Shown: positions 6,384 through 56,201, counted from the first letter of the stretch. The stretch is DNA of 64,000 bases from Methanobacteriota archaeon (GCA_963720465.1 OY970393.1:1504001-1568000); one strand, 5' to 3'. Program-made: numbers and translations. The notes: generated from the sequence alone by a model not told the origin.

Positions 6384-6679
6384 GCTTCCACCTAAGTGGT
6401 AGGCTGCGAAGTGGGGTATCACAAGCGCAGCTTCCAAAACCATGAAACATCGCAAAGTGCAACGATTTGCGATTGCTCATCATCATTGAAGTTCTTTTTC
6501 GAATAAAGACTTATTGGGGGCTGCGTTGAACGAGCAGCCGCGAATTGTTCCTGCATGGAAGCGCTGACATGAAACCAAGCAGTTCATCGGTTGCTCTTGG
6601 ATGACGCGCGTCGAATCAGCTCTGGGTGATGCAAACCTTTATTGTCTAGAAGCTTTCCATATACGCGAGAGCTGATACC

Positions 6680-7288: not shown

Positions 7289-7778
7289 TCAAGACGCAGA
7301 CACTCCAGATGGGTAGAGAGCCGCTTCTCTGCCCTTTATTTTCTTGTTTTGCAAGTCTAGTTGAGTTAGCACGAACAGAATTACAGCAAACGCTGCACGA
7401 AAAATTGGTGCTGTCTTCGCGTCCTTGTAAAAAAAGTTCTTTCAATCAAACTATGTAAGATACGCCGGCCATCTCAGAATCGACGGCCGACTTGCTTACT
7501 TGGTCGCAATGACCAATACTTGCGCAATACAATAGTCCCGATGCAATGCTGTGCTTTCTGATTTGGCTCGTCACCTCGCTTAGTTTAGTCAATGCTATGT
7601 CTGCTTCACTCCTATTTGTATTTTTTCATTATTAAACGTGATTGATAGCGGAATTAAGCAGCCTAAAAGAAAGAGCGCTTTTAGGCGTGCAGACCCGTCA
7701 CGGAGCTGTTGTCAACATGAAACCCTTTCTTGCTATCAAACGAATGCCGTTTCGAACAGTGACTATTGATTCTCGAAG

Positions 7779-8384
7779 CTAATCGTACAGGTAATCGTAG
7801 GACAAGTGCGAGTCCACTATCTGCGTCTTCCCGCAAGCAAGCGATTCCCTCGTCGCGCCAAAATCAGCACAATGGATCAACGTTTTACCATTTCCTATTT
7901 CCGCGGCCTGATGCGCGTCGCTGGTCCCAATGACGGGTTTATCATATTGACAAGCTAGCTGTTGCGCAAGCGCATTGCGCGAGGCGCTCGTTTTCGAATT
8001 GAATCCCTCAATGAGATCAAGGCTCTTAATGGCCTCGGGACGTAATAGGTTCTTTCCGACTCGGAATGGGTGCGCCCAAAAAACTATTCCACCTTGCGCT
8101 TTTACCTCGGTGATCACGTCGGCGGTGTTTCTAGACTTAATTTCCTCCGTGAGAAATAAACCGATCAGGTCCTCCTTGTTCGCCGTCTCAATTTCTGAAC
8201 CGACGATGACCAAAAAATCAGAGTCGTCATTCAACCTACGCGTCTTAACTGCGCCCTTGATGGTTAAGTGATCCGCGACGGCAATGCCGTCCAATCCCAG
8301 TTTCTTTGCGACCTTGAGAATGGTGGCCGGCGCCATTGTACAATCGCCCGAGTATTTTGAGTGAATGTGCAGATCAAAGATCAC
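7779..8384 (-). CDS. PHP-domain metal-dependent phosphoesterase
   Basis: DLHIHSKYSGD, IAVADH, AHPFR, GTSDAH. Confidence 0.9.
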   Translation of the reverse strand: MIFDLHIHSKYSGDCTMAPATILKVAKKLGLDGIAVADHLTIKGAVKTRRLNDDSDFLVIVGSEIETANKEDLIGLFLTEEIKSRNTADVITEVKAQGGIVFWAHPFRVGKNLLRPEAIKSLDLIEGFNSKTSASRNALAQQLACQYDKPVIGTSDAHQAAEIGNGKTLIHCADFGATRESLACGKTQIVDSHLSYDYLYD

Positions 8385-8588
8385 GTTCCTTGCACCTCGA
8401 TCGACGCGTCCATCGACTACAAACTGATGGGCGTTCGCCTGCGAAAATACTCAAGCCTAATAATCCAATGGCGGCCAATAAGCATTTGTATCTTTCGCCA
8501 ATTCTTTCCGCAACCGGGGGTTTCTGCTGGCGAGGTCATCGCGAAAAAGGAAGAAACGGTTAAGCCTAGCGCCACGTTACAACCGTCT

Positions 8589-9062
8589 ATGAAAACGCTC
8601 GTCGTTTTTTATTCTCGCACCGGTGTCACCAGAAAGGTGGCTGAAACGATCGCGCGAGCCCTCTCAGGAGACGTCGAGGAGATCGTCGCTAGAGAAGATC
8701 GAAGCGATTTTTCCGGGTACGGCCTTTCGCGCGAGGAGGCGGTCCTGAAAAAGCCCGCAGCCATCAAGGCCACGAAAAGGGATCCTGCCCGTTACGACCT
8801 CACGATCGTTGGCACGCCGGTATGGGTTCAAACCGTATCAAGTCCCGTGAGGGCCTACATCTCGCGCAAGAGAAAGCGATTCACTCGTGTTGCGTTCTTT
8901 TCCACCCAAGATCGTTCAGGGGCAGAGAGCGCGTTCGAAGAGATGCAAGAACTGTGCAACGCGACCCCGGTTGCCACCGTCAAAATTCTGCACCAAGACG
9001 TAGAAGACAACTCGTACGTTCAGAAGATCGAAAGCTTTCTAGTGCGTATCGGCAATCTGTAA
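8589..9062 (+). CDS. Flavodoxin-family protein (start MKTLVVFYSRTG)
   Basis: FYSRTGVT FMN loop, GTPVW, VAFFST. Confidence 0.85.
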   Translation: MKTLVVFYSRTGVTRKVAETIARALSGDVEEIVAREDRSDFSGYGLSREEAVLKKPAAIKATKRDPARYDLTIVGTPVWVQTVSSPVRAYISRKRKRFTRVAFFSTQDRSGAESAFEEMQELCNATPVATVKILHQDVEDNSYVQKIESFLVRIGNL

Positions 9063-9212
9063 GCGATCCTTTCAAGCTCAAAGCGCCTGGTCATCCTGCT
9101 CGCACGCGGCCGCCGTAGAGTTCGTCAAGCGTGCGCTGAGTGACAAACTAAAGTTGTTATAAATCTTAAAATAGCTACTGGCTCTATTTTACGTTGCCTC
9201 GGTCTTAAATCA

Positions 9213-9365
9213 CTAAGGTTGTTAACGGAAGCTCGGTTGATTCCACAGAAAGGGTCGATGCATGGGTTGTCTCACGCTTATCGTGAGCTTGTTGGTTCTG
9301 TGGAAAAAGGGACACGTTAGATATGTCGCGAACGGGCAAAAGTTAACGACCTTAGACTATTTTTT
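9213..9365 (+). ncRNA. Candidate structured non-coding RNA (multi-stem)
   Basis: Nested stems 9213-9226/9342-9355, 9231-9235/9333-9337, 9241-9250/9296-9305 and 9271-9276/9282-9287. TATA-like TTATAAA at 9157; T6 at 9360. Confidence 0.5.
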
Positions 9366-9556
9366 ATGACGCTTATCAGGTCCAGAGAGGCTTTACACGA
9401 AATAAGCGAACGCGATCACCAACGCCTAGCTGGGCCGGTACAAAGGTAACCACCCTCGGCCTTTGCGCGCGGCTCTCATCGCCACGCTCCGCTGATGCCA
9501 GAACTTCTGACAACGGTATTAATATCGGACTGCCCATATGGGTTAGCTGGAGCAGC

Positions 9557-11734
9557 ATGGACGTAACGGATCTACCGGAGAAGATTGCGCGTTTTTACAC
9601 TCAGCCAGACTTCAAGGAGCTTTATCCGCCGCAAGCCGAGGCTCTGGATTGTGGACTGCTCAACGGCACGAGCATGGTGGTCGCGACACCCACCGCTTCC
9701 GGCAAGACGCTGCTGGCAGAATTCGCGATGCTCAATTCGATCGATAAAGGCGGCAAATGCCTTTACATCGTCCCCCTAAAGGCGCTCGCTTCAGAGAAGT
9801 TCGACCGATTCTCGCTATTTGCCGCGTCTGGCGTGCGAGTCGGAATCTCAACGGGAGACTACGACGTTCGTGACGACAATCTGGGACGTAACGATATTAT
9901 AGTCACCACTTCGGAAAAAGCAGATTCGCTGCTGCGAAACGGCGTTGCGTGGATGCATGCACTTAGCGTAGTCGTCGCGGACGAGATACATTTGTTGGAC
10001 TCGATAGATCGCGGTCCAACGCTCGAGGTAACGCTGACTAAGCTTAAGAGACTTAATCCGACAGCCCAAATTCTCGCGCTCAGTGCAACGGTTTCCAATG
10101 CCGACGAGATCGCGGCTTGGCTTGACGCGCAACTCATAAGAAGCGACTGGAGGCCCATCGCACTGCACGAAGGGCTTTATCTTCCTGAGCGCGCCCTTAT
10201 CGCGTTCATACACGACGCGTCACCGCGTAGCGTCGTAAAAAAAGCCGTTTCAGATGGAGCCACCGACCCGGCGATAGCACTTGCCATCGATACGCTACGA
10301 GAAGGCGGCCAATGCTTGATCTTCGTCAATACACGGAGAAATGCCGAAAGCCTTGCAAAGAGAATCGCAACGACGCTGCAATCGCAATGCGATGTCGACC
10401 GCGAGGAGCTTGCTTCGAAAATCCACGGGGAGACCGGGATTGTTGAGAAGCTCGCCTACTGCGTGAGGCGCGGGGCGGCATTTCACCACGCCGGGCTTCT
10501 CAGCGACCACCGGAAACTCGTCGAAACGTGGTTCCGCGCCAACCTTATCAAGGTCATCGTCTCGACGCCTACGCTCGCGTCGGGGCTCAACCTTCCTGCC
10601 CGAAGAGTCGTTATTAGAGATTACAAGCGTTACGACGCGAACTACGGCATGATGAACATTCCCGTGCTCGAATACAAGCAAATGGCCGGTCGCGCGGGGA
10701 GGCCCGGATTCGATGCGTACGGTGAGGCGGTTCTCATCGCCAAATCGCTGAGTGAGTGTGAGGCGCTCGCAGACCACTATATTCTCAGCGAGGCCGAAGA
10801 CGTTATTTCAAAACTTGGAACGGAGACGGCGCTTCGCATGCACGTTCTCTCGACCATTTCAAACGGTTTCGCGCACACGAGGGCTGCTCTCGAACAGTTC
10901 TTCGACGCGACGTTCTTCGGATTTCAGCAAAAGACGGGACTGAACCTCTTGCGATATGCGATTGACCGCGTTTTGGCATTTCTCGAAAATGAAGAGATGA
11001 TTGTCGACTCTAGCGGGCGTGGCCAGGCGACGACTTTTGGGCATCTGGTATCACGACTCTATGTCGATCCGCTGACTGCGGTGAAGATACGAAGAGGACT
11101 AAACAACGCCGAGACGGTCAGCGACGTATCGCTGCTCCACCTAATCTGTTCCACCCCGGACGTTAAGCGCCTGTTCATGCGAAGCAAGGATTACCGCGTG
11201 GTAACTGAATTTGTCAATCAGCATCTCGATGAGTTCCTAGATGAGATTCCTGATCGATTCAGAGACGTCGATTACGACTGGTTCCTCTCTGAGGTAAAAA
11301 CGGCGATGCTCGTTAACGACTGGATAACCGAAGTAAGCGAGAAAGAGCTCACTGAAAGCTACAACGTCGGGCCAGGCGACATCAGAAATCTCGTCGATAC
11401 GGTGCAGTGGGTGAGTCACGCGCTCGCCGAGCTCGCGACCTATCTCAAGGTTCCGGCAAGGAAACAAGCCCGGGAGCTTACAGCGCGCATTCAGTTTGGT
11501 ATCAATCGCGAGCTTCTCGATCTCGTGCAACTGAAAAATATCGGCCGGGTCCGTGCTCGAAAACTGCACGATGCAGGTCTCACAAGCCGAAAAGAGCTCA
11601 AAAATGCTCCTTTTGAACAGGTGGCGGCGCTTGTTGGTCCTGCGGTCGCGTCAGACGTCTTTGCGCAACTCGGCGAACACCGTGGCGTTCTTGATCGAAA
11701 GGATCGAGGGGATACGTTTCTCACAGACGAGTGA
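9557..11734 (+). CDS. hel308: ATP-dependent DNA helicase Hel308 (Ski2-like)
   Basis: PTASGKT, DEIH, LSAT, FHHAGL, QMAGRAGRPG, C-terminal IGRVRARKL HhH. Confidence 0.95.
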   Translation: MDVTDLPEKIARFYTQPDFKELYPPQAEALDCGLLNGTSMVVATPTASGKTLLAEFAMLNSIDKGGKCLYIVPLKALASEKFDRFSLFAASGVRVGISTGDYDVRDDNLGRNDIIVTTSEKADSLLRNGVAWMHALSVVVADEIHLLDSIDRGPTLEVTLTKLKRLNPTAQILALSATVSNADEIAAWLDAQLIRSDWRPIALHEGLYLPERALIAFIHDASPRSVVKKAVSDGATDPAIALAIDTLREGGQCLIFVNTRRNAESLAKRIATTLQSQCDVDREELASKIHGETGIVEKLAYCVRRGAAFHHAGLLSDHRKLVETWFRANLIKVIVSTPTLASGLNLPARRVVIRDYKRYDANYGMMNIPVLEYKQMAGRAGRPGFDAYGEAVLIAKSLSECEALADHYILSEAEDVISKLGTETALRMHVLSTISNGFAHTRAALEQFFDATFFGFQQKTGLNLLRYAIDRVLAFLENEEMIVDSSGRGQATTFGHLVSRLYVDPLTAVKIRRGLNNAETVSDVSLLHLICSTPDVKRLFMRSKDYRVVTEFVNQHLDEFLDEIPDRFRDVDYDWFLSEVKTAMLVNDWITEVSEKELTESYNVGPGDIRNLVDTVQWVSHALAELATYLKVPARKQARELTARIQFGINRELLDLVQLKNIGRVRARKLHDAGLTSRKELKNAPFEQVAALVGPAVASDVFAQLGEHRGVLDRKDRGDTFLTDE

Positions 11735-11742
11735 GTTAGCCC

Positions 11743-12258
11743 ATGCAATATGACATTGTGGCAGGAAAAATCACTATAGAGAACGTCCAGGCTTTTTTGA
11801 GGGAACTTGACGCCATTGCGCAGTCAAGCAACACAACAATTCAAGCCGCCGACGCCACAAAAATCGCCGGGCGGCGGCACGTTGACTGTGCGGTACGCAA
11901 CGCCATTCGGTCGTTTCGCGATCATCAAAACATCGCTACGGACCTTGGCGTCGAAATCCTCCTGCACTTGAGCGCTTGCCGGCAGATACGAAAGGCGCTT
12001 GAAATGGGCGTTCACGAAGGGGAGATGGACGTGTTGTTGATTGTCGTTGGTGCGAAGAGATCAGTTGAAAGAACTGCGACGCGGCTCACGGGGTTAATAC
12101 GCTCAGACCCGCGGGTTATGGAGTACGATGAAACAAAAAACACGCCATTAATGCACGCGTTTAATATCACCAAGCAGGAGATTGCAGCTGCCGGCGGGGA
12201 CGCGAGAATACCAGACCTGGTGCGAGAGCGCTTAGTGCTTTTTGATGTGTTCAGATAA
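11743..12258 (+). CDS. cgi121: KEOPS complex subunit Cgi121
   Basis: EILLHLSACRQIRKALEMGV motif; directly downstream of hel308. Confidence 0.88.
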   Translation: MQYDIVAGKITIENVQAFLRELDAIAQSSNTTIQAADATKIAGRRHVDCAVRNAIRSFRDHQNIATDLGVEILLHLSACRQIRKALEMGVHEGEMDVLLIVVGAKRSVERTATRLTGLIRSDPRVMEYDETKNTPLMHAFNITKQEIAAAGGDARIPDLVRERLVLFDVFR

Positions 12259-12371
12259 CCCAACAAGCTTTTGCAGCGCCGTGCTTGTCGGCTTCATCTG
12301 CGTCAAACAGCACTTTGACCACCCCGGCCCTAACGTTGGCAGCGACGCCGCCGAGCACGTGAAGCAATCTA

Positions 12372-13112
12372 TCAGGGCGCGCGTACGTTGACCCACAGGT
12401 GCAATTCGTAGGTCTTGTCAAATGAATCAACGAGCGTGAACTTCAGCTTCTGCTTTTCGCCTAAGGAAGTGACCGAGATAGATATAGGCCGTTCAACGTT
12501 TTGCCCTTGGATCAGCGTCAGATTGTCGAAACGATAGAGTGTTGAATTGCCTAGCGACACCGTACCTGCATAGGTGTCGCTCGCGTTCTCGTGGTTGGTG
12601 ATGCCGAGGATCAGAGTAAACGCCGTTCCCGAAGTCACATTTGTGGGATATGCGACGGTCTGTCGGTTGCTATCCAACACATAGAACTCGCTGTAGCTGG
12701 CTTCGTTCGGGTGGGGAGCTAACAGGAGCGTCGTGCCAACCAAGGCGAGACAAAGACAAATTGCGGCTCCCACTGCCGATAGTACGATCGGGTTGCCTGC
12801 GCTGACGACGAGTCGGTCAGACTGCGGAAAGCGTCGCCACCGCGCGAACGCTGATGCTGCGAACACCGCCACGAGCGCAGACATTGAGAGTGCGAGCGTC
12901 GTAAAATCTAATCCGACGGTCATCAGAAGAACAGCGCCGTCAGCAATTGAAACAAGAACGCTAGTAATAACCGCCGCCGAGACTCTCTCCAGACTCCGCA
13001 AGTCTTGTTTTTTCGGAAACAACACAACGGTTAGCAAGAAACCAGGAATGAAAAAGAACAGTGCTGCCCCTATCAGCAGCCGAAAAACAGACAAAACAAC
13101 GGTATCCATCAT
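12372..13112 (-). CDS. DUF1616-domain membrane protein
   Basis: FFIPGF...LFP...ER, SEFYVL, YPT, GITNHE, C-terminal LHLWVNV. Confidence 0.85.
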   Translation of the reverse strand: MMDTVVLSVFRLLIGAALFFFIPGFLLTVVLFPKKQDLRSLERVSAAVITSVLVSIADGAVLLMTVGLDFTTLALSMSALVAVFAASAFARWRRFPQSDRLVVSAGNPIVLSAVGAAICLCLALVGTTLLLAPHPNEASYSEFYVLDSNRQTVAYPTNVTSGTAFTLILGITNHENASDTYAGTVSLGNSTLYRFDNLTLIQGQNVERPISISVTSLGEKQKLKFTLVDSFDKTYELHLWVNVRAP

Positions 13113-13316
13113 GCCCCTACCAAATCGTCGCGGTATTTATCTCTATCAAAGATAGACAAGTCGCGCCTATATAGTTAATCTCAGACGACAATTGGGCAAC
13201 AACGTGGGCACACTGGACCTTTGTTCGACCTAATGAACCAAAACACAAGACTTAAGCTCAAAAAGTAAAGCCTTACTCCAATAACGTTTCCCGACAGCAG
13301 ACCCATCAAACCTAAG

Positions 13317-13880
13317 ATAGTTGTTCCGACCCTCAATGAAGAGGCGACTCGGCCAGGTGATTGAGGTTCCTGTTCGCGTGCTATCGGACGAGGGTTACCC
13401 CCCGCTATATATACCATTGACGGATACTCGAAGACGCTACGCAGCAAAAAGCCCTTGAAAAAGATTAGTGCTGCCTGTTAAGCGGCCGGGGAAGTGATCG
13501 GCAGTTCGTGTTTGCGTCTGTTCGCGCACGGCGTCATTCTTGGCGCACGGATTAAGGGCGCATCGAGGGAGGGGCATGACATGACACGTACCAACGTTTT
13601 TTGGAACCGGGTGCTTACTGGCGTGGCTCGGATGCTCTTAAAAGAGGACATAGCTGTGACTTGTGCACGAGATTCTTGGGTACCTCGGGTACGTCGTCGT
13701 CCGCATAGACCTTGTCGCACAGGGAATTCTGATTGAAGCAGACATGTTTATTGAATATGCGGTCACGTCCTTGGCATAGGGAAAATGGCGATAGACTACG
13801 GCAAACGCGCAGATCGACCCAAGGTACGAGCCATCAGCGACGGGCTGAAGATAGCATCTCTCTCACTGAAGCGATGGATG
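13317..13880 (+). pseudogene. Decayed GT2 (DPM1-like) glycosyltransferase
   Basis: Frameshifted fragments in the expected order: IVVPTLNEEAT, IYTIDGYS..DAT, GVILGARIKG...NRVLT, IEADMFIE, IDYGKRADRPKVRAISDGLKI. Confidence 0.75.
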
Positions 13881-15070
13881 GCTCCGAGCGGGAGGCGAGC
13901 ACTATAAAGATCGCGTACGTGATGGATGCAATTTATCCCTACAACATGGGGGGCGCGGACAAGCGCCTGTGGGAACTCGCGCGCAAGCTCGCCGAAAACG
14001 GAGAACACGAGGTCCACATTTACGGCATGAAATGGTGGCAGGGAGCTGATACAATCGTCACGGACAACGTTCACCTCCACGGCGTGTGTGAGGTTCGCGA
14101 ACTGTACAGCAAGCAGGGCGTCCGCTCGATCACCGAGGCTCTCACCTACTCGTTGAGGGTCTTGCCGGCCTTGCTGAAGGCGGATTGCGACGTTATCGAC
14201 TGCAACCAATTCCCTTACTTTCCATGCTTGGCGGGCAAAGTTGCCTCAATCGTAAAAAGAAAACCATTAGTGGTCACGTGGCTCGAGGTATGGGACACCT
14301 ATTGGTGGGACTATCTTGGACCGATCCGCGGCAGCATCGGTAGAATTGTTGAAAGACTGACGATGCGGCTCCCTGATGGTATCGTAGCGATATCGAACAA
14401 GACGAGAGACGACCTGATACGGTGTCACGTCAAACCCGAACGCATCGACGTCATTCCCGTCGGCATCGATCTTGAGCGCATTACGATGATCGCGCCTGCG
14501 TCGACGACGACCGACGTGCTGTTTGCGGGAAGACTCATCAGTGAAAAACGCGTCGATCTCTTGCTGAACGCGATTGCGATTGCGCGAACGAAGGTTCCTA
14601 CCATTAGGTGCGCGATTATCGGAGACGGTCCGGAGCGAACCTCGCTCGAAGACCTAGCGTCAAAGCTTGGACTCGACGAGAACGTCACTTTTACGGGCTT
14701 TGTCGATCAAGACGGACTCACCGCGTTCATGAAATCATCGAAGGTATTCGTTCTCCCTTCCGAGCGCGAAGGGTTTGGCCTCGTTATCATCGAGGCAAAT
14801 GCATGCAAGTTGCCGGTGATCAGCATAAGTCACGAAATGAGCGCCGTCCGGGAACTTGTTCAAGACGGCGTCAATGGTTTCCTCGTCAGCCGCGGCTCGC
14901 CCGATGAAATCGCCGACGTTATTTTGAAGCTCATCAGCGACGACGCACTGCGTGAACAACTGGCTGAAAACGGATTTGAAATGTCAAAGAAATTCGCGTG
15001 GTCAGATATCTCAAAAAGCATTATAGATACCTACGCGAAACTGATGAGCAACCGAAGGCCAGCCAGATGA
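13874..15070 (+). CDS. Glycosyltransferase family 4
   Basis: YPYNMGGAD, FAGRLISEKRVD, LPSEREGFGLVIIEANAC. Confidence 0.92.
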   Translation: MDGSEREASTIKIAYVMDAIYPYNMGGADKRLWELARKLAENGEHEVHIYGMKWWQGADTIVTDNVHLHGVCEVRELYSKQGVRSITEALTYSLRVLPALLKADCDVIDCNQFPYFPCLAGKVASIVKRKPLVVTWLEVWDTYWWDYLGPIRGSIGRIVERLTMRLPDGIVAISNKTRDDLIRCHVKPERIDVIPVGIDLERITMIAPASTTTDVLFAGRLISEKRVDLLLNAIAIARTKVPTIRCAIIGDGPERTSLEDLASKLGLDENVTFTGFVDQDGLTAFMKSSKVFVLPSEREGFGLVIIEANACKLPVISISHEMSAVRELVQDGVNGFLVSRGSPDEIADVILKLISDDALREQLAENGFEMSKKFAWSDISKSIIDTYAKLMSNRRPAR

Positions 15071-29586: not shown

Positions 29587-29633
29587 GATGGGCTCGAGGC
29601 GATTCGAAAGCCCGGCATTCGCCGTTTAGAGGC
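29587..29633 (-). repeat. Degenerate att site: copy of the tRNA-Val 3' half
   Basis: 42/47 identity to 56126-56172. Confidence 0.9.
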
Positions 29634-38640: not shown

Positions 38641-39201
38641 TCAGCGTAGAAGGCTTACGCTTTTAAGCTCCTTAACGATTCGATCGACCGCATTAGCCGC
38701 ATCTTCGAGCTTTCGGCCGCCGGTTATAACCAGTTTGCCGGAACCAAACAAAAGAATCACCACTTTAGGATCCGATACCCGGTAGACGAGGCCGGGAAAC
38801 TGCTCGGGCTCGTACTCAATGTTCTCAAGCCCGAGACCGGTGGCAATTGCGTTCAAATTCAAAACTGCGTGAAGATCTGCTGACGCGACGATGTTCTGGA
38901 CTTTAATCTCGGGCGTTCCCTTCACGTCGATTCCGATATTTCGTAGACTTTGAAATAGATTTTCAATGCCTTTATGAACCTCATCTATGCTCTTTGCACC
39001 CGTACAGACAATTTTTCCCGATCGGAAAATTAACGCGGTGGTCTTTGGGTTCTTGGTCCGATAAACGAGGCCGGGAAACCGTTCAGGGTCATAATCTGCA
39101 CCCTCTAACGCAAGCGTGGCTTGCTTGAGGTTTATCTCTATTCCGATGCCGGTTGAGGCTACCACATTTTCAATTTTAATAGTGTCCCGCGGTTCAACCA
39201 T
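38641..39201 (-). CDS. tbp: TATA-box-binding protein
   Basis: Two TBP repeats: IENVVAS...YDPERFPGLVYR...IFRSGKIVCTGAKS and VQNIVAS...YEPEQFPGLVYR...LFGSGKLVITG. Confidence 0.97.
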   Translation of the reverse strand: MVEPRDTIKIENVVASTGIGIEINLKQATLALEGADYDPERFPGLVYRTKNPKTTALIFRSGKIVCTGAKSIDEVHKGIENLFQSLRNIGIDVKGTPEIKVQNIVASADLHAVLNLNAIATGLGLENIEYEPEQFPGLVYRVSDPKVVILLFGSGKLVITGGRKLEDAANAVDRIVKELKSVSLLR

Positions 39202-40264: not shown

Positions 40265-40437
40265 CTGCTGTAATCTTCTCGTGTTGGCTCATTACAGCGA
40301 TGAGTACCTCTTTTTTAGCCGCATGCGGCAGGGAGATTGCCGCTTTGTCTACTGATTTCCTTGCACCACCCCTCTGAGAAAAACCACGTTCAAAATAGCA
40401 ACCGTTATTGCCGATAAGTTCCTCTTCGGCAACGCGC

Positions 40438-40650
40438 ATGAAGAACATCACCGACTACCTTGAAAAAGAGCAGGTCGATCGGGTGCTTGCGGCGGCGCAC
40501 CAGTGCAGTCAGCGGGACTACTTCATGCTGCGGGTGCTGTGGCGCACCGGCGTGCGGGTCAACGAGTTGCTTACTATCACTCCACGCGATATCGAACCAA
40601 ACAACAGCGTGGTCAACGTCACGAAGGCGAAAGGAGGGAAGCATCGACAC
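40438..40650 (+). pseudogene. Truncated XerC/D-like tyrosine recombinase (a second family)
   Basis: YLEKEQVDRVL...RDYFMLRVLWRTGVRVNELL...KAKGGKHR, then similarity ends before HxxR and Tyr. Confidence 0.85.
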
Positions 40651-41002
40651 GAAGGAGCGGGCATCACGTTTTGCGACGTTCGCTACGATCTAGAGCTCGG
40701 AGCGCTATTGAGCGGTGAGCGCCGGGACACCTGAACTACGACGAGATACGAGAGACGTCAACACTGTATAGCCAAAAGTGCTGATTCCGGTGCATACGCA
40801 GCACCCTGAGGTGTTTAGCAATTTGCGAAAATGTCGTCATGCCAGCCAAGGAGCTAGCATTCAGACATAACGGCTCAATCCGTTAGAGTCCTGTTTAGCA
40901 GCACCCCCCTTAATCGGGTGCTAGAATATCGAAAAAACCTGTACCGCTAGTTATGATTCTTAGCAGTTAGCGGGGTATGTGTTGCGGCTATCTCTTGGTT
41001 AA

Positions 41003-47697: not shown

Positions 47698-47975
47698 TCA
47701 ACCTGAAAGTTCGACATCGCCCCAGTATCGCACGTAAATATCGTGGACGTGCTCAGGAAGCGGATGCTTATAGAAACACCAATCCACTCCAGAAACGCCG
47801 TGAGTGAGAATGTAATTCCTGTTACTTTGATCCCACTGCAATATATCGCCCATTTGTTCACAAAATTTCCTAAGATCTCCGTGGACGATACGAGCATCGC
47901 TGTGCAACAGACGGACTTCGTTGTGCCTAAGCCACTGCTGAAAGGACAGTTGCGCAAAAGCAGGTTCATCATCTT
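47698..47975 (-). pseudogene. Integrase 3'-tail remnant D
   Basis: QDDEPAFAQLSFQQWLRH...GDLRKFCEQMGDILQWDQSNRNYILTHGVSGVDWCFYKHPLPEHVHDIYVRYWGDVEL. Confidence 0.92.
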
Positions 47976-48054
47976 GTCACAGTGTAGGGGCCAGATCGAA
48001 AGACTTAATTCCTTCCCAAATAACGCTCTGCTTTGCAGTCAAAGGTTCATTCAG

Positions 48055-48990
48055 ATGAATATCACAACGCACGCGGTCGTCGCGTTTGTGCTCGGGATCG
48101 TTCTTTTCCGCAACGTTGAGCTTGCCTTGATCATGCTCATGGGTGCCGTGATTCCTGATTTAGATCGAGAGTATTTCTACTTGAAAAGAGACCGCTACAG
48201 GGCGCTTCAGCTTCACCGAGCAGCCCTTCACAACTTTGTGGTTGCTGGGATATTGTGGGTAGCGAATCCTCTCTTGGCTCTCGGCGCCTTGAGCCATTAT
48301 TTTTTGGACATCTTTACGTCGGCTACTGATCGGGGCATTGAGTTCTTGTTTCCTTTTACTAGGGTTGTCGGCACGTGGCTGTATGGCATCGAAGGGGAGA
48401 CCAAAAACGGAGTAAAGATGTTCAAGTACACCGTCAAGGAGAAGAAAACGGGGGAAAAGAAACTACAATGGTGGGTGGAAGACCCGTGGCGTTTGCTATA
48501 TCAGACCAGTGAGGTTGATCTGTTCGAACCAAATCCGCAACCTTGGAGGAGATCCTACGGGCCTTTTAGGAATAGCAAGATTGTCGACTGGGGAATATTC
48601 GTTGGAAGCGTGTTATTTCTACTTTTGCTACTCGTGCCTGCCACATCGCGAACAACATTTTATTCATCACTCGGGCTCGACCTGCTTCACGGGTTTTGGT
48701 TCGGCTTGGCATTCGGAAGTATCGCCTTATTCTTTTGGCTAGGAGAACGTTCCCGGAAACAATCGGCTGAACCGCAGCTTAAGCTCACGAACTGGCCGGT
48801 TGACGCAGCGCTTCTCGTTGCAGTTATCCTCTTTTTCCTAGGGGGACTTTTGGGAGGGGTCTTTTCTGTGCACTTGCCCAGCACCATAGCCACAGATGTG
48901 CTTGGAGCTGGCGTCGGCTCAATAGCTATTGGTCTAATCCTATCTTACGGGTACAGGAAAATGAGAAAGTCTGAAGACCTATCACTATAA
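48055..48990 (+). CDS. Membrane-bound metal-dependent hydrolase (YdjM-like)
   Basis: TTH, GAVIPDLD, HRAALHN, SHYFLD, G...LFPF. Confidence 0.85.
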   Translation: MNITTHAVVAFVLGIVLFRNVELALIMLMGAVIPDLDREYFYLKRDRYRALQLHRAALHNFVVAGILWVANPLLALGALSHYFLDIFTSATDRGIEFLFPFTRVVGTWLYGIEGETKNGVKMFKYTVKEKKTGEKKLQWWVEDPWRLLYQTSEVDLFEPNPQPWRRSYGPFRNSKIVDWGIFVGSVLFLLLLLVPATSRTTFYSSLGLDLLHGFWFGLAFGSIALFFWLGERSRKQSAEPQLKLTNWPVDAALLVAVILFFLGGLLGGVFSVHLPSTIATDVLGAGVGSIAIGLILSYGYRKMRKSEDLSL

Positions 48991-49206: not shown

Positions 49207-49327
49207 TTCGGCCATAATTGCAGCACAGCTGAAAGACAACGCTTAAGCCAACACGCCGCCTTTTGCCTGTTGATTTCGTTTTTTTTTTTTGTCTGAGAGG
49301 ATTTGTTTGGAAAAAAAGTTCGTAGCT

Positions 49328-50104
49328 ATGAAACAGCATTATGTGCCTCAATTTTATCTTCGGAATTTCTCACCGGATGGAAAAGGGCTATGCTGCTGCA
49401 ATTTAGCGACTAGAAAATCAAAACGTCTAAAGATCAAGAAGCTTTTTGTTGAACGTGATTTCTACGCAGGTAGCTCAACGGCATCGACAATCGAACTTGA
49501 ATTATCTAAATTAGAGGGCAAGGATGCCAAGATCATTCAACAGATTCTAAAGACGCACACTCTTACAAGCAAAACGGGTGAAGACTTGTTCGATCTAAGC
49601 AGGTTAGTTCTTGTCATGGCCTCGCGGACAAAAGCAACAAAAAATAGCCTTGAGAGGAGAGCCTTTCTTTACGATTATTCTATGGAAAAACTCGGCCTTA
49701 GACCAGAAGAGGTGAGAGGTGAGAAACTTAATCCAAAATCACTTAATTTAGGCGCTATGGAATTGGTATTGAATCTGCCAGAGATAATCTCTGGTCTGGC
49801 GAACACACTCTTAATCAATAAAACGAATGATCCGTTTACCCCTTTTATCACGTCTGATTCTCCGGTGATCCGCTATAACTTAATAGCGAGAGATTTAACA
49901 GATAAAGATTTAACAGGTTTTCTAAATAAAGGCCTCATCATCGTTCTTCCGCTTAGCGAAGAGGTTGCCCTCTGTCTATTTGATGGTGAAAGATATAAGC
50001 TAAAAGACGCGATAAATGGCAATATTATCATACCGGATAGCGAAGTGTCCTATCACTTCAGGACGATAGGTTATGGGGCCCGCGTTCCCTGCCTGTTGCT
50101 TTGA
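49328..50104 (+). CDS. DUF4238-domain protein (possibly truncated at the C-terminus)
   Basis: KQHYVPQFYLRNFS, FITSDSPV, LPLSEEVALCL. Confidence 0.88.
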   Translation: MKQHYVPQFYLRNFSPDGKGLCCCNLATRKSKRLKIKKLFVERDFYAGSSTASTIELELSKLEGKDAKIIQQILKTHTLTSKTGEDLFDLSRLVLVMASRTKATKNSLERRAFLYDYSMEKLGLRPEEVRGEKLNPKSLNLGAMELVLNLPEIISGLANTLLINKTNDPFTPFITSDSPVIRYNLIARDLTDKDLTGFLNKGLIIVLPLSEEVALCLFDGERYKLKDAINGNIIIPDSEVSYHFRTIGYGARVPCLLL

Positions 50105-50775: not shown

Positions 50776-53700
50776 TCACTGCTCTTGTTCCCATTGTCTC
50801 TGTTTATCACGAAGGGTTGGATATCTTCCAATTAAACTTTGAAAAATAACCCCGACATCGTGCTGTAATGGTTTAGGGGTTTTGAAAAGCAGATCAACGG
50901 CGTTTCCGATGTCGCCAATGTAGCACTCCTGCGGATACTCCAACAGCTCCTTAAAAATGTCCACAAAATCCTTCTTGCTCACTGTGAAGATCATTTCCAG
51001 CATATCGCCATTTGCATAATATGGCGCTGAAATCCTTTTTGGGTATTCGAGATGAGTAGTCAGATATTCTTTTTCTGCGGCGATACATTTCTTGTAAATT
51101 GATAGAAGTTCATTTTGATAATTTGCATTGTTAAAATTATCCTTCACGAGGGAGTAGATGCTGTCATATGCGCTTTGGTCATATCTCTCGACAATCCTGC
51201 GCACATATTTAAGTGTCTTACTTAAATAGCTCTCGCCGGCGCTGCTTTTCGCATGCGATAATGACCACATATGCCAAGCAATTGTAGATTTAGTCGCTGA
51301 ATCTCTTTCAATCAAACGGCAGAGCAAATCCTTGAACGGAAGCTTTTCTTCTGGACTGAAATCTCGGCGAAGCTCGGCGAAACAGATTATGGTTCCCAAA
51401 TACTTTTTTAGAGCCTCGACATCGGCCTCCACAAAGATGTTAACTGCTTTCGTCGCGTGCGCTAGGTCAACGGACCGCAGTCTGTTAAAAACGTCGGCCA
51501 TTGCGACTTGCAAGGCCTGTCTTTTATTCTCCTCCTTTTCAAGCATCTCAAATGCAATAGCCTCTACTTCATTTGCTTGTCCCTCTGACATGAACCTCAT
51601 GCCGTTCGCCTTCGCATTTCTATTCTCAGCAAGTCGAGCCAACGCCAGGCACGATAGCTGTCTCACGTGAAGATTTCTATCTCTCGTAAGACTTCGGACT
51701 AACGCGATCACCTCGTCCACTTTACCTTCAATGCCACTCCTTACAACACTGCTGATAGCCCAAGCAGCGTACCCCCTGACGGTTCCTATGACCATGACGT
51801 TCGCATTTGCGACATCGATATCCTTTTCGTTACTGGGGTCGGGGTCGCTAACAAATCTCTCAATAAGCTCAAAACTCGGTATTGGATTCTCTTTATCTTT
51901 TGCAGCGCATTCTGTTACGAATTGCACCAGCAACTCACGCGAGTGACTAAAAGAAAACTTGGTTACGAATAGGTCGTAATTAGCAGTAAGTGCATTTGCA
52001 GCACTGAATGCGCGTTCTAATGCTTTTCGGCTATGTCTGTTGTGCAAATCGTGCAATGTCCCAGCCAGGAGCTGTTGTTCGTTGATGGTCAAAAAATCTT
52101 TGTTTTTTATGTCGTTCCATGTTGTCCAACCTTCGTTTGGGCGTTTCACGATTATCCTTGCGAACAACGCGCAGAATTCGCGCACTTGAATTTGGTTAAG
52201 GCGTTTTATGAACGACTCATTGGCGACAAGTTTTTTAAATATCGACGTTGCCCGATTTGAGTCATGACACAGTAATTTCTCGACGTTCGGAATGAGATTG
52301 CCATTGAAAAACAAATCATACTCCAGGTAGCCAGGATTGCTCGCCCACGCCTCTATTTGCGCGATTGCTTGTTTGTGGCCCATAAAAGCTAGGTCGCCTA
52401 CAACTTGGTCCACGAATGGATTGACAGGGCCGCCTGCGGCGGTTATTTTAACAGCCTCCCACTTCTGATCGTCTGTAAACTTGCCAGTTTTCAAGATCTG
52501 ATATACAAATTCAGCGTTATCAGACACATGTCTTCCTGATAGTAGGTGCCCTCCCAAAATCTCCGAGGCTTCTTGGTTGCCTTTCTTATATTCATCAAGA
52601 ACGAATGGAATAGCGATTCGATTGAGGAAATCCGGCCTGTTCTTTGAAACCTCCGTGGGCTCCACTACGCAGTTTTGTTTTATGAAACTCCACCTAGTCT
52701 CGCAGTTGAAATCTCGCAACGCTGGAATCAAGGTGCACAGGATAAATTGTTTTTCTGGAACCTCGTAATCATGCCCATAAACAGCACTTATAGGTCCGAT
52801 GAGATCCCAGCCTTCGAAATCGCACCTGAATTTTTGTCTGTAGAACTTCTCGTATTGCGTGGCGAGTTTGCTTGACATTGCCAGGAATCTGTGCTCGAAA
52901 AATTCGTTATTGTTATCGTTAAGAAAGTGTTTCAGGATTCGAAATATCTCTCTTGGGGCATAGCGACTATAGTTACCTTCGTCTCCGATGACATTGAAGG
53001 TGTTAATGATGAATTCATAGATCTGCTCTTTGGCATCCTTGGTAGATTTCTGATATAATGATTCCAATGTATTGCATAAGTCGCTTTTGCGATGCAATTT
53101 ATCCTCGTCGGCGTTGAGGTAGAAAAGCTCCTCGTCGTACTTTTCGAACTGTTTTTTCAATATGCTTAAAACCGCTTGATGCAGCGAACTATCTTTCTCA
53201 ACAATGGCCGTCAGCAGTTTTGCCAAACCGCTTTCAAAAAAAGTGTCAAAATAGAAGGTATTCAATTGATCTAAGTTGCTCTCAACAAAAGATAAAATGC
53301 ACCTCCTATTCGCCTTATTCGCTATGTTAGCACGGAAAACATCGAATAGTTGCAGAGGATAATAGATTTTGCACGCGTGCCAAACGTTCGTCCAGTCGGC
53401 CAATTTTAAGTCATGTTTGACCTTCAATTTGTCAAGCAACAAATACATTAAGGCGGGATCTTGCGATAAGGCGGTAATCTCGCTGTCTCCGGCCCCTAAA
53501 TTCCCCCCTCTCGCCGCCGCATCAATTTTGTCGATCTGTTTTTCATAACTAGTTAGTTTGGCATTAAAAATTGTTGATCTATCTTTGGCTTTAGAGGCTT
53601 GAGATTGAATTTCGCGCTCCATATCTTCGCGCTTATACACGATGCCTTCAGCAGACCCCCAATGGAACACTTTGAGTAAAATGCTGCGTACAACGTCTTC

Positions 53701-54216
53701 TATATCATCTTGGGGTAGCCAAAAGCCGATAACTTGACTGAATAACAAGTAGACTAAATCTTCAAGAACACTCTTGGGTTGCTGCCAAAGTCTTAGTTTT
53801 GAAAGGAGTTGCCCGTGCTCTCGCTCATACCCTTTCTTCGCTAACTCGTCTTCTAGAACTTCCTGCGGGTAAAATCTCAGCGCTTCTATTTGTTTAAAAG
53901 TCTCAGAAGTCTCAATGCTGCATAGGCTGGTTATCACTAGTATCTCATCGGCAGCGTCGGCAGCTTCTTTCTCTTTGTCATATAGATTCTTGACGAAAGC
54001 TTTGAGAATGTGCTCACGCAATCCCTCTTTCCGATCTTTAGCTTCACATACTATCTTGTGACCTTCGGCAAATACTAAGGTGAAGTCAATAGCGCCTGGC
54101 GTCTCCAATTGAATAGACAAGAACGCAGGAGTTTTCAGGTACTGCAGAAATAACGCCAGCGCGGCAAGTGTCTGATAGTTTTGCCCTTTGAAAGGGCCAC
54201 GTCCTGGATGTGTCAT
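50776..54216 (-). CDS. 1146-aa protein: N-terminal PD-(D/E)xK (Cap4/DUF4297-like) nuclease + HEAT/ARM-like solenoid; candidate defence protein
   Basis: KGQNYQ...LE...IDF...VCEAK; helical remainder with HEAT-like TVRGYAAWAI and DRNLHVRQLSCLALARL; AT-rich. Confidence 0.7.
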   Translation of the reverse strand: MTHPGRGPFKGQNYQTLAALALFLQYLKTPAFLSIQLETPGAIDFTLVFAEGHKIVCEAKDRKEGLREHILKAFVKNLYDKEKEAADAADEILVITSLCSIETSETFKQIEALRFYPQEVLEDELAKKGYEREHGQLLSKLRLWQQPKSVLEDLVYLLFSQVIGFWLPQDDIEDVVRSILLKVFHWGSAEGIVYKREDMEREIQSQASKAKDRSTIFNAKLTSYEKQIDKIDAAARGGNLGAGDSEITALSQDPALMYLLLDKLKVKHDLKLADWTNVWHACKIYYPLQLFDVFRANIANKANRRCILSFVESNLDQLNTFYFDTFFESGLAKLLTAIVEKDSSLHQAVLSILKKQFEKYDEELFYLNADEDKLHRKSDLCNTLESLYQKSTKDAKEQIYEFIINTFNVIGDEGNYSRYAPREIFRILKHFLNDNNNEFFEHRFLAMSSKLATQYEKFYRQKFRCDFEGWDLIGPISAVYGHDYEVPEKQFILCTLIPALRDFNCETRWSFIKQNCVVEPTEVSKNRPDFLNRIAIPFVLDEYKKGNQEASEILGGHLLSGRHVSDNAEFVYQILKTGKFTDDQKWEAVKITAAGGPVNPFVDQVVGDLAFMGHKQAIAQIEAWASNPGYLEYDLFFNGNLIPNVEKLLCHDSNRATSIFKKLVANESFIKRLNQIQVREFCALFARIIVKRPNEGWTTWNDIKNKDFLTINEQQLLAGTLHDLHNRHSRKALERAFSAANALTANYDLFVTKFSFSHSRELLVQFVTECAAKDKENPIPSFELIERFVSDPDPSNEKDIDVANANVMVIGTVRGYAAWAISSVVRSGIEGKVDEVIALVRSLTRDRNLHVRQLSCLALARLAENRNAKANGMRFMSEGQANEVEAIAFEMLEKEENKRQALQVAMADVFNRLRSVDLAHATKAVNIFVEADVEALKKYLGTIICFAELRRDFSPEEKLPFKDLLCRLIERDSATKSTIAWHMWSLSHAKSSAGESYLSKTLKYVRRIVERYDQSAYDSIYSLVKDNFNNANYQNELLSIYKKCIAAEKEYLTTHLEYPKRISAPYYANGDMLEMIFTVSKKDFVDIFKELLEYPQECYIGDIGNAVDLLFKTPKPLQHDVGVIFQSLIGRYPTLRDKQRQWEQEQ

Positions 54217-54459: not shown

Positions 54460-54630
54460 CGTGGCCTAATGCTTCATAAATGCATCATACCGTGCGTAGG
54501 CAGCGGATGCTTGTAAAATCGCCAATCGACTCCTGAGACGCCGTGCGAGTATGTAGTTCTTATTTGACTGATCTCAGCGCGAGATACCACCTTACCACTT
54601 ACAAGTTTGCGAGATGCCTCGAAAATGGCT
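54460..54630 (-). pseudogene. Integrase 3'-tail remnant B (heavily decayed)
   Basis: *DQSNKNYIL/HGVSGVDWRFYKHPLPTH/YDAFMKH*. Confidence 0.85.
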
Positions 54631-54659: not shown

Positions 54660-56180
54660 CTAGATTGTGAAGTCGACGTCTCTCCAGTACTTCATGTAGA
54701 TATCATATACGTTCTCTGGCAAGGGATTTCGATAATGCCCCCACTCAACCCCTGAAACACCGTGTGTCAAGATGTAGGCTCTGTTTGACTGATCCCACTG
54801 AATAATGTCGCCGTACTGCTCGGCGAATTTCCTCAAATCGCCGAGAACGAACGGCTTTTGGAACCGCGACATCGAGATTTTCTGTCGTTTTATCCACTGC
54901 AAAAAGGAACTGTGAGTGAACATCAGTTGGTCGTCATTTCGCCCAGCGAGTAGGGGTTTAAGGGCTTCCACAACGCGAGGCGCCAGCGGCACGTAGTGGC
55001 TCATACGAACCTTGTCTTGCGACGAATCAACGAGGAGCACTGGCTTATCAGCAGCCAACGCCGTGCGGAACTGGCCTACCCTTAGCTTCGCCGTCGTAGC
55101 TTCGCTCCGTTGGCCGGTGTACGCCTCAAACAAAACGAACGCCGAATATTTTGCTGATCGCTCAGAACTGATCTCCCCTTCTCGTTGTGCTTTCTCTATG
55201 TGTTGGAGAACGTTGCTAATATCCTCCTTAGTCACGATACGAGAAGTGACGTTCTTGCGCTCTTTGACCGTTTTTGGAGGCTCTAAGTAGGCAGTGAACG
55301 TCTGATAGCGCGGTTCGGCGCGAGTCATGGCGAGGAACTTGAGGAAAGACTTGGCAAAGTTGAGCACTTTAGAATGAGAATCGGTCGATGTATACTCCTC
55401 TAGTGTTCGCTCCCGAAGCGTTTCGACAGTGTGATGTGATATCGCCCCTATCGTGCAATCCCACAATAGCTTTGAAGATCTGTTAATCCAATCCCGCGAT
55501 TTCTGAGCAAGGCCGCTCGTACGATACGTAACGTAACGATCAAGCTCATCCCGCGAGAAGCTAAGCGAATGCTCTTTTTGGTGAAGAGTACTCGAGGATA
55601 TGACTTTAGCCCCCTCCGCGCCGCTCTGTGTTTGCGTTGATGATGGCGTTGGTGCAGGTATCAGTGTTATTGGCTGAGGAGTTAGTGTCACTGCCTCGCG
55701 CTTCATTGCCTTCTTCGCTATTTCCTTTAAGTGATCGGCAATAGCTACACTATATTCAAACTCAGGATCTTCCACGAGCTCTTCCTCATCTTGAGGGGCA
55801 AGACGCGCCCAACGCGCTTCAGAATCGACCACAATATCGTCGAAATAAGCTTGCCAATCTATCGGCAGAAGGTCGACTAAGCGCGTAGACTCGTTCTCGT
55901 GTTGGGGTGCTGAATGAACATTTCCATTCTCGGTATATTGGTAGGAGGTCTCATCGTGCGCTTCCTCCTCTCCCAACCCTTCGCCTGCGGAGTTGTGCAA
56001 CTTTTCATCAAAGTTGTGCAACTTTTTGTCCTTGTTGTGCTCATCTTCTCCCAAGATTCTCACTACCGACAAACGGCTATCTGAGGTCTCTAACGTCCTC
56101 TGGGTCTCCGATTTGGAAAAGAATAGATGGGCTCGAGGCGATTCGAACGCCCGACCTTCGCCGTGTAAAGGCGATGTCAT
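54660..56180 (-). CDS. int: Tyrosine integrase whose reading frame overlaps the tRNA-Val 3' half (probable Int-C of a split, SSV-type integrase)
   Basis: AYTGQR (R), QDK (K), GDLRK (xxxR), LTHG (H), WGHY (Y); the frame begins inside the tRNA. Confidence 0.88.
   Translation of the reverse strand: MTSPLHGEGRAFESPRAHLFFSKSETQRTLETSDSRLSVVRILGEDEHNKDKKLHNFDEKLHNSAGEGLGEEEAHDETSYQYTENGNVHSAPQHENESTRLVDLLPIDWQAYFDDIVVDSEARWARLAPQDEEELVEDPEFEYSVAIADHLKEIAKKAMKREAVTLTPQPITLIPAPTPSSTQTQSGAEGAKVISSSTLHQKEHSLSFSRDELDRYVTYRTSGLAQKSRDWINRSSKLLWDCTIGAISHHTVETLRERTLEEYTSTDSHSKVLNFAKSFLKFLAMTRAEPRYQTFTAYLEPPKTVKERKNVTSRIVTKEDISNVLQHIEKAQREGEISSERSAKYSAFVLFEAYTGQRSEATTAKLRVGQFRTALAADKPVLLVDSSQDKVRMSHYVPLAPRVVEALKPLLAGRNDDQLMFTHSSFLQWIKRQKISMSRFQKPFVLGDLRKFAEQYGDIIQWDQSNRAYILTHGVSGVEWGHYRNPLPENVYDIYMKYWRDVDFTI
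55991..56040. repeat. 21-bp-periodic quasi-palindromic repeats near the att
   Basis: AGTTGTGCAACTTTT at 55991 and 56012; GTTGTGC at 56034. Confidence 0.7.
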
Positions 56181-56201
56181 AACCAGCTAGACCACGAGCC
56201 C
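56128..56201 (-). tRNA. tRNA-Val (TAC), intronless, CCA not encoded
   Basis: GGGCTCGTGGTCTAGCTGGTTATGACATCGCCT-TTACAC-GGCGAAGGTCGGGCGTTCGAATCGCCTCGAGCCCA cloverleaf; TATA about 25 bp upstream. Confidence 0.97.

Follow-up and report, generated by a model that had tools for sequence, protein, structure and literature searches.

The 64,000-nucleotide stretch of DNA analyzed here (the window), from a Methanobacteriota archaeon (GCA_963720465.1, OY970393.1:1504001-1568000), carries a giant gene (positions 50776..54216, minus strand) whose 1146-amino-acid product, P0001, is probably a new antiviral immune protein. P0001 joins a predicted Cap4-type endonuclease domain at its N terminus to a long alpha-solenoid, and its model holds no nucleoside triphosphatase (NTPase). 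It belongs to a rare, undescribed, and horizontally mobile family whose members occur patchily in distantly related phyla, one per locus, and a defense role of this family is well supported. An earlier note on this DNA had proposed a single-gene sensor-effector in which a HEAT/ARM solenoid directly senses a viral protein. The reading that we favor, tentatively and at a little under an even chance, is that of an NTPase-free two-module immune protein, the solenoid of which senses an invader-derived trigger and restrains a DNA endonuclease of the Cap4/LmuA/HamA class until triggered.

Giant gene and its predicted N-terminal nuclease domain

The gene is a single open reading frame (ORF) of 3441 nt without interruption, with an ATG start and its stop codon at 50776-50778. 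A word-indexed search returned 26 full-length relatives, all unnamed or "hypothetical," with identities of 25 to 67% and query coverages of 97 to 100%, P0003 alone having a coverage of 89%. A database gene call, P0002 (1110 amino acids), begins at P0001 residue 37 and leaves out positions 54106-54216 (minus strand), so that the first helix, which is conserved and bears the GxxYQ motif, is cut off. The coverage of the homologs supports the ATG at position 54216 as the true start.

Residues 1 to 215 (53572..54216, minus strand) are predicted to form a Cap4-type PD-(D/E)xK endonuclease domain on the basis of an AlphaFold2 (AF2) model, Foldseek, and hhalign. The N-terminal G-x-x-YQ...E...D...E-x-K signature that the earlier note had described is present in the translation as GQNYQ (residues 11 to 15), E38, D44, and E58-x-K60, followed by D90, and the putative catalytic core (residues 11 to 60; 54037..54186, minus strand) comprises G11-x-x-Y-Q15, E38, D44, and E58-x-K60. 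In an alignment of 14 N-terminal domains (A3), every sequence has G5, G11, Q15, E38, D44, K60, and D90, and at least 90% have E58; the same columns are nearly invariant in the full-length alignments A1 (26 sequences) and A6 (31 sequences). The signature residues rank among the best-conserved columns of the family, well beyond chance. Catalysis is tentatively assigned to D44, E58, and K60, with E38 and Q15 in a supporting role.

The AF2 model of residues 1 to 230, built from a 21-row alignment, has a mean predicted local distance difference test (pLDDT) score of 82 and a predicted template modeling (pTM) score of 0.78. Its secondary structure elements follow the order α-β-β-β-α-β (helix 11-26, strands 32-37, 45-49, and 54-60, helix 68-82, and strand 91-96), with a helical part extending to about residue 213, and the conserved acidic residues and the lysine are placed at the ends of strands 1 to 3. 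A Foldseek search of the PDB with this model gave 22 matches at an E value of ≤1e-3. Cap4 chains occupy the first 11 places (E values of 1.5e-7 to 7e-7; TM-scores relative to the query [TMq] of 0.61 to 0.65; 204 to 219 columns), with 6vm6_F at the top (E value of 1.5e-7; TMq of 0.63; 218 columns) and others from 6wam, 6wan, and 6vm5. They are followed by HamA (8zue_A; 1.7e-5), HerA-DUF (9c1m_G; 3.9e-5), LmuA (9nxx_D; 3.9e-5), and Avs3 (8dgc_A; 7.4e-5). The matched nucleases Cap4, HamA, HerA-DUF4297, LmuA, and Avs3 are all immune effector nucleases. In addition, an hhalign comparison of the N-terminal domain with the Cap4-like products of genes that adjoin bacterial homologs of P0001 (see below) gave an E value of 6.7e-5 with the motifs in register, and clusters of PF14130 (Cap4_nuclease) made up 8 of 30 neighbors in a language-model feature search (Atlas). 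The earlier assignment to the Cap4/Mrr class of nucleases thus agrees with the predicted PD-(D/E)xK fold and with a Foldseek list led by Cap4. The modeled fold and active-site layout of residues 1 to 215 are right for a PD-(D/E)xK nuclease, from which we infer nuclease activity.

Solenoid body and absence of an NTPase

A linker (residues 216 to 243; 53488..53571, minus strand), modeled as coil or short helix with per-block pLDDT scores of 68 to 74, leads into the predicted alpha-solenoid of about 50 helices (residues 244 to 1146; 50779..53487, minus strand). In the full-length AF2 model (26-row alignment; pLDDT of 84.3 and pTM of 0.58), residues 196 to 1145 are entirely helical, bar a short hairpin at residues 478 to 485, which matches the approximately 900 amino acids of helical repeats expected from the sequence. 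The further proposal of a HEAT/ARM solenoid fared well for the fold, with its roughly 50 helices and generic solenoid matches in Foldseek, and less well for the sequence, in which residues 813 to 866 (51619..51780, minus strand) are the sole HEAT-resembling stretch and stay below the Pfam cutoffs (HEAT_EZ, E value of 1.7e-4 and 22.4 bits versus a cutoff of 27; HEAT_2, E value of 0.036). The family profile matched designed alphaRep HEAT proteins alone among the PDB sequences (E value of 0.0013), and 12 of the 26 members have weak HEAT matches. Foldseek matches of the full model are generic HEAT/ARM solenoids alone (CAND1, SF3B1, RRP12, importins, condensin, and FANCI), with TMq values of 0.2 to 0.3, and Avs4 (8dgf_B) stands at rank 32. 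A BFVD fold search likewise found generic repeat proteins only (TM-scores of <0.2), and an Atlas search with the solenoid gave HEAT leads only, with scores of <0.9. Several loop motifs of the solenoid are invariant in the 26-sequence alignment, namely, those around N408/D412, G469/G474, P528-D529-x3-R533, D791/P794, and R814. Because of this invariance, a conserved functional surface may be assigned to the solenoid, which points to more than a bland scaffold.

The Walker A pattern [AG]x4GK[ST] has no match in P0001 and matches 3 of 175 family proteins, at the differing positions 1001, 480, and 471. Pfam scans of P0001 and the 26 members detected no P-loop or NTPase family. A cryptic STAND (signal transduction ATPases with numerous domains) domain was considered and rejected since there is no Walker A motif and, apart from the hairpin, no β-sheet after residue 196. 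On the model, P0001 is without an NTPase, as the earlier note had stated, and has no strands able to form the parallel sheet of a P-loop domain.

Family size and modular architecture

P0001 has no convincing family in Pfam, NCBIfam, PADLOC, or PHROGs, and the expectation that it belongs to no described system stands with respect to these databases. In the literature, searched as full text with the supplements of large screens outside the scope, there is no description of a Cap4-type nuclease combined with a HEAT or other solenoid and lacking an NTPase. An exhaustive HMMER search of 1.84 billion representatives (50% identity) placed 217 representatives in the family at an E value of ≤1e-3, 124 of them at ≤1e-30. 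Custom hidden Markov models (HMMs) were used to assign architecture classes to 175 of the family proteins. The N-terminal domain and a near-complete solenoid occur together in 94 of these, and 37 have >600 solenoid columns without the N-terminal domain, about 20 of the latter (914 to 1020 amino acids) beginning at the start of the solenoid. In P0101, P0112, and P0131, another nuclease-like module takes the place of the N-terminal domain, and P0099 and P0122 carry an extra HTH_3 domain in front. Since the N-terminal module is present, absent, or swapped across the family, the solenoid is the constant core and the nuclease is exchangeable, a modular architecture that is typical of immune proteins. 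In a FastTree phylogeny of 31 rows, P0001 falls into a separate, well-supported clade with P0003 to P0008, the members of which are 37 to 68% identical over their full length (P0003 from query residue 119 on).

Partner genes and defense neighbors in bacteria

One scan of 185,579 species-representative genomes yielded 13 bacterial loci (L001 to L013), 12 of which include upstream DNA. The hosts are mostly bacteria of the candidate phyla radiation (CPR; Giovannoni-, Parcu-, Sacchari-, and Doudnabacteria), the others being Margulisiibacteriota, Armatimonadota, Elusimicrobia, and two gammaproteobacterial metagenome-assembled genomes. Each of these 12 loci has a partner gene that encodes 198 to 394 amino acids, is read in the same direction as the giant gene, and either abuts the start of the giant gene within a few bases or overlaps it. 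Nine of these 12 partner genes are nuclease-like (five Cap4-like, two with subthreshold Mrr matches, and two Schlafen AlbA_2). The partner in L007 is the sole one to pass the Pfam Cap4_nuclease threshold (29.1 versus 26.2 bits), and those of L009, L003, L004, and L011 are Cap4-like by motif, alignment, or weak matches; partners of the L007/L009 type also have weak matches to the LmuA and HamA models. The partners in L006 (E value of 0.013) and L013 (E value of 0.16) show Mrr_cat matches below the threshold, those in L002 and L008 are the AlbA_2 proteins, and those in L005, L010, and L012 have no family match. The giants of L005, L006, and L007 form one fully supported clade in the 31-row phylogeny, yet they have different partner types.

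As a pattern of the family, the "single gene" of the earlier note is contradicted by the second small gene in 12 of 12 bacterial loci and also by the three members with a partner-like module fused in place of the N-terminal domain; the window copy is a solo form without a partner gene. The N-terminal modules of P0112, P0101, and P0131 resemble, by eye, two of the partner types, and the fusion of such modules to the solenoid is evidence for joint action of the partner and the solenoid. A complex prediction of residues 1 to 700 of the L007 giant with its upstream partner had a score of 0.22 (mark, 0.32), which is silent on binding either way.

The earlier note had suggested looking for homologs in defense islands, and such co-occurrence was found. 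In 8 of the 12 loci, the genes immediately upstream, in the same orientation, belong to restriction-modification (R-M) or other defense systems: type I systems in L004 and L013, type III systems in L006 and L012 (the latter also with GmrSD/HEC-05), Eco57I-like type IIG enzymes in L008, L010, and L011, and a Bsp6I/C5-methyltransferase/Vsr/KAP set in L007. No R-M gene is nearby in L002, L005, and L009, and L003 has too little upstream DNA to judge. Integrases or recombinases occur near L002, L005, and L012. L008 illustrates a mobile cassette cleanly: in an uncultured bacterium, mreC (5552-6346) and mreD (13795-14328) are separated by an inserted block of three genes (6347-13633), namely, a type IIG R-M gene, the AlbA_2 partner, and the giant gene. 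The defense role of the family is supported because of the partner in 12 of 12 loci and the R-M or defense genes upstream in 8 of 12.

Three of the 13 loci have a small co-directional gene (170 to 216 amino acids) with a 4-base overlap at the stop of the giant gene (L001, 3754-4404; L004, 13621-14133; and L013, 13579-14115), and in L012, a gene of 208 amino acids (13693-14319) follows 18 bases past the giant gene. One of these small downstream genes encodes a DUF2726 protein (a nuclease-related family), and the others are without a family match. They may be a third, optional component; no small downstream ORF of the L001/L004/L013 kind is present in the window. A 1000-amino-acid unannotated ORF in L012 was considered as a second solenoid and rejected.

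Proposed mechanism and comparison with known systems

In the proposed mechanism, the solenoid would serve as both the sensor and the regulatory scaffold that holds the nuclease silent. Binding of an invader-derived trigger to the solenoid would lead to a shape change or to oligomerization, by which the nuclease domains would be unmasked or brought together, and the resulting cuts in DNA would stop the virus or kill the infected cell. By analogy with DSR2 and Avs, the trigger would most likely be a virus protein, with DNA or an anti-restriction factor equally open. Direct sensing of a viral protein by the solenoid, as the earlier note had it, is plausible by the analogy with DSR2. This scheme presumes that the domain is active as a nuclease, that activation proceeds by oligomerization, and that the solo archaeal copy works without a partner, and the nature of the trigger is likewise presumed.

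Among known systems, DSR2 comes closest to this scheme. Two reports describe DSR2 as a SIR2 domain with an alpha-solenoid C-terminal domain that binds the phage tail tube (PMC11850899, PMC11263360), and it is, like P0001, one large NTPase-free chain in which an N-terminal effector enzyme is followed by a long alpha-solenoid. However, the effector of DSR2 is a SIR2 NADase and not a nuclease, and bacterial members of the present family carry an extra nuclease-like gene upstream. P0001 and the 26 members have no SIR2 match, and DSR2 gave no sequence match to P0001 and no fold match among the 50 matches listed. Avs3 and Avs4 also have an N-terminal nuclease of the Cap4/Mrr class followed by a large helical-repeat sensor of phage proteins, but they need a central STAND ATPase for oligomerization, whereas P0001 is without a Walker A motif or P-loop sheet. 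Cap4, the CBASS effector (PF14130/DUF4297), has the same GxxYQ...D...ExK layout as the N-terminal domain of P0001 and is its best structural match; its activation, however, goes through a SAVED domain, to which cyclic oligonucleotides bind. No SAVED domain or CD-NTase was found in the window or in the 139 flanking ORFs scanned for gene families across the 13 homolog loci, and the C-terminal part of P0001 is modeled as all helical. LmuA (Lamassu), HamA (Hachiman), and DUF4297 (HerA-DUF4297) contain the same class of nuclease as the N-terminal domain but are controlled by a structural maintenance of chromosomes (SMC) protein (LmuB), a helicase (HamB), and the HerA ATPase, respectively. No SMC, HamB-type helicase, or HerA partner was found in the window or in the flanking ORFs scanned; apart from R-M Res subunits and, in L011, one DrmD-like SNF2 protein, these flanking ORFs of the 13 loci include no helicase-type neighbor.

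The logic of an effector joined to a repeat sensor is already known. In the best-studied immune proteins in which a large repeat sensor is paired with a nuclease of the Cap4 class, the nuclease is turned on through an ATPase (STAND, SMC, helicase, or HerA) or a nucleotide-binding SAVED domain. If the reading favored here is true, a DNA-cutting effector would be controlled by a helical solenoid alone, which has so far been documented for the NADase DSR2. The family itself, the swappable second nuclease gene, and the operon-like placement behind R-M genes are new, as would be, on this reading, the NTPase-free control of a Cap4-class nuclease. With its exchangeable nucleases, its second nuclease gene, tightly coupled in bacteria, and its operon-like arrays behind type I, IIG, and III restriction systems, the family is a compact model for the shuffling of defense modules. 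Most of its members come from lineages that have received little study, namely, CPR bacteria and an archaeal island, and in which few defense systems have been tested.

Weighing of the immune reading and its alternatives

Several observations weigh against the immune reading of P0001, the evidence for which consists of predictions and comparison. The probability of the hhalign match to the Cap4-like partners is 64%, and the nuclease call otherwise rests on the predicted structure: none of the 26 family members matches Pfam Cap4_nuclease at an E value of ≤10, and a PDB sequence search with the N-terminal domain found no nuclease and nothing meaningful. No family of PADLOC-DB 2.0.0 matched P0001 at an E value of ≤1, and none of seven bacterial giants matched a PADLOC model at ≤0.01, so no validated defense model was matched. 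No R-M gene adjoins the window copy, and when HMMs of the partner groups were run against the 575 six-frame ORFs of the 64-kb window, no partner gene was found. In addition, P0001 is without about 12 residues of a conserved loop (alignment columns ~914 to 925), including a nearly invariant His, and this loop is kept in its closest relatives, P0003 to P0005. The 185,579 species-representative genomes included no archaeal match, and tblastn against 72,556 plasmid and 50,697 phage records found no homolog and linked the family to no known conflict partner. Finally, solenoids are able to bind DNA as well as proteins, and charge is uninformative on this point; neither the net charge nor the isoelectric point (pI) of the solenoid discriminates between the two.

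That last point bears on a restriction-like enzyme that senses DNA, in which the solenoid would wrap or track DNA and read its modification, its ends, or an unusual structure, and the N-terminal nuclease, joined by the partner nuclease in loci that have one, would cut, without the sensing of any viral protein. Condensin and FANCI wrap or track DNA in this way with their HEAT subunits, and the Foldseek matches include an FANCI-Y-DNA complex (3s4z_A) and condensin (7qen_D); these are, however, generic (TMq of ~0.2) and ranked no better than importins or CAND1. The effector class of Cap4, LmuA, and HamA acts on DNA, the family is located among restriction genes, and its median solenoid pI is 8.0, but the solenoid of P0001 itself is acidic (pI of 6.1; net charge of -11), and no DNA-binding domain family was detected in P0001 or the 26 members. 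We consider this explanation unlikely. The R-M neighbors also invite the idea of a backup or guard of restriction, with the cassette of partner and solenoid tied in function to the R-M genes that precede it: one or both nucleases would be released once the solenoid senses that restriction has failed or is inhibited, with anti-restriction proteins or foreign DNA that escaped restriction as possible cues, and the window copy would be a detached remnant of such a cassette. PrrC with EcoprrI follows this logic. In 7 of the 12 loci that include upstream DNA, the partner immediately follows a co-directional R-M or restriction-linked gene, at a distance of 27 nt in L006, 41 nt in L008, 9 nt in L012 (GmrSD), and 29 nt in L013 (YgjP after hsdR), with an overlap in L010 and L011 and with a KAP NTPase 86 nt away, behind the type II set, in L007; in L008, moreover, the R-M gene, partner, and giant gene went between mreC and mreD as a single insertion. 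Since the R-M types vary (I, IIG, III, and II), however, a specific physical partnership with R-M is unlikely, three of the loci (L002, L005, and L009) and the window have no R-M gene nearby, and defense genes cluster anyway, so that adjacency alone is no proof of coupling. Such a guard, with the triggers suggested for it, is rated as improbable. We are just as doubtful of a more novel reading in which the solenoid would define a new NTPase-free class of prokaryotic immune hubs, a giant helical sensor that docks its own Cap4-like domain and a swappable Cap4, Mrr, or Schlafen nuclease and is wired into R-M operons as a second line firing on the evasion or inhibition of restriction, the solo archaeal form then being the minimal self-sufficient unit.

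The window gene could instead be an inactive relic: once transferred into the archaeal island, the gene would have lost its partner, and perhaps its function too, and would now be decaying as a solo copy. The missing partner-type ORF, the deletion in the conserved loop, and the decay of the island, with an integrase remnant (54474-54560) and a truncated integrase (40408-40734), are in line with this; on the other hand, the 3441-nt frame is intact, all catalytic and most invariant residues are kept, and the clade of P0001 and P0003 to P0008 may be solo as a rule. The 37 to 68% identity over full length within that clade is taken as a sign of purifying selection, and there seems to be little chance that the gene is a relic. 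It is very unlikely that the protein has no part in immunity and serves the mobile element (as an addiction toxin, in the exclusion of competing elements, or in the processing of DNA upon integration or transfer) or acts as a cellular DNA repair or chromatin factor. The giant gene does lie inside an integrated region beside an integrase-like gene, most large HEAT proteins act as scaffolds in housekeeping machinery, and one source gives a cluster member an unrelated cellular name. However, the patchy distribution with one copy per locus, the swapping of nuclease modules and the shuffling of partner types even among closely related giants, the adjacent R-M genes, and the absence of homologs from the plasmid and phage records speak against such a role.

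Genomic island around the archaeal copy

The giant gene had been described as AT-rich, proximal to a tRNA gene, and convergent with a DUF4238 gene, and all three descriptions were borne out. A gene for a TATA-binding protein and a PGF-CTERM protein, both encoded in the window, mark the host as an archaeon. The GC content is 0.42 to 0.45 over 50 to 54 kb of the window versus 0.53 to 0.57 in the flanking 55 to 59 kb. A tRNA-Val gene (anticodon TAC; 56128..56201, minus strand; ARAGORN; Rfam score of 64.6 bits) is the likely integration site, and one integrase-like gene (54660..55901, minus strand) lies between it and the giant gene. The latter's Phage_integrase match (E value of 0.023) is below the cutoff, and it has no PHROGs or NCBIfam match; its identity is supported because the ORF, which is open up to position 56180 and overlaps the tRNA gene, adjoins the tRNA and a repeat of the tRNA end exists. 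This repeat of the tRNA-Val 3′ end (56128-56159), found by a pattern search, lies about 26.5 kb away at 29589..29620 in the same orientation, agrees in 28 of 31 bases, with at least the first 18 exact, and is a candidate far boundary. The pattern has 2 matches in the window, and none of 100 shuffles gave 2. Because of the repeat, the giant gene can be placed at the tRNA-proximal end of a region of approximately 26.5 kb, and the layout suggests that 29.6 to 56.1 kb represents one or several integrated elements.

The 443 bases upstream of the giant gene contain nothing but the remnant of an integrase C terminus (54474-54560, minus strand; HGVSGV-W--Y--PLP), just downstream of the stop of the integrase-like gene, with which it has about 12 of 16 residues in common by eye. 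It looks like the leftover of an earlier or tandem integration. The truncated tyrosine integrase at 40408-40734 (plus strand; 108 amino acids; Phage_integrase, E value of 8.7e-10; phrog_216, E value of 4.3e-11) covers the first part of the catalytic domain only and is a sign that the island is composite and decaying.

The DUF4238 gene (49289..50104, plus strand), convergent with the 3′ end of the giant gene, matches PF14022 with an E value of 2.5e-30 over profile positions 1 to 251 of 281; PADLOC has no match for this ORF, and a frameshift at its 3′ end found no support. A DUF4238 protein from a P2 prophage hotspot is reported to confer strong T7 resistance on Escherichia coli (Rousset et al., bioRxiv 10.1101/2021.01.21.427644), because of which the tRNA-proximal end of the island looks like a small defense cargo. 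None of the 139 flanking ORFs of the 13 homolog loci has a DUF4238 match in Pfam (E value of ≤1e-4), and the gene was rejected as a functional partner of the giant gene on account of this absence; it is likely a separate defense gene in the same island.

Genes for YdjM-family membrane hydrolases were found within a few kilobases of the giant gene in 3 of 14 loci (the 13 homolog loci and the window), namely, at 47743-48990 (plus strand) in the window, 5475-6833 in L002, and 2069-3280 in L005. The copies are only remotely similar (BLASTP E values of 0.13 and 0.002), and YdjM was dropped as a component; its recurrence is probably a coincidence. The cargo between 29.6 and 56.1 kb is mixed and includes Ig-like surface proteins, a pyrroloquinoline quinone (PQQ) propeller protein with PGF-CTERM, and methyltransferase and oxidoreductase genes. 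A complete gene for the TATA-binding protein (38641-39201, minus strand; TBP, E value of 9.3e-62) also lies inside the tRNA-bounded region and is possibly an extra, element-borne copy.

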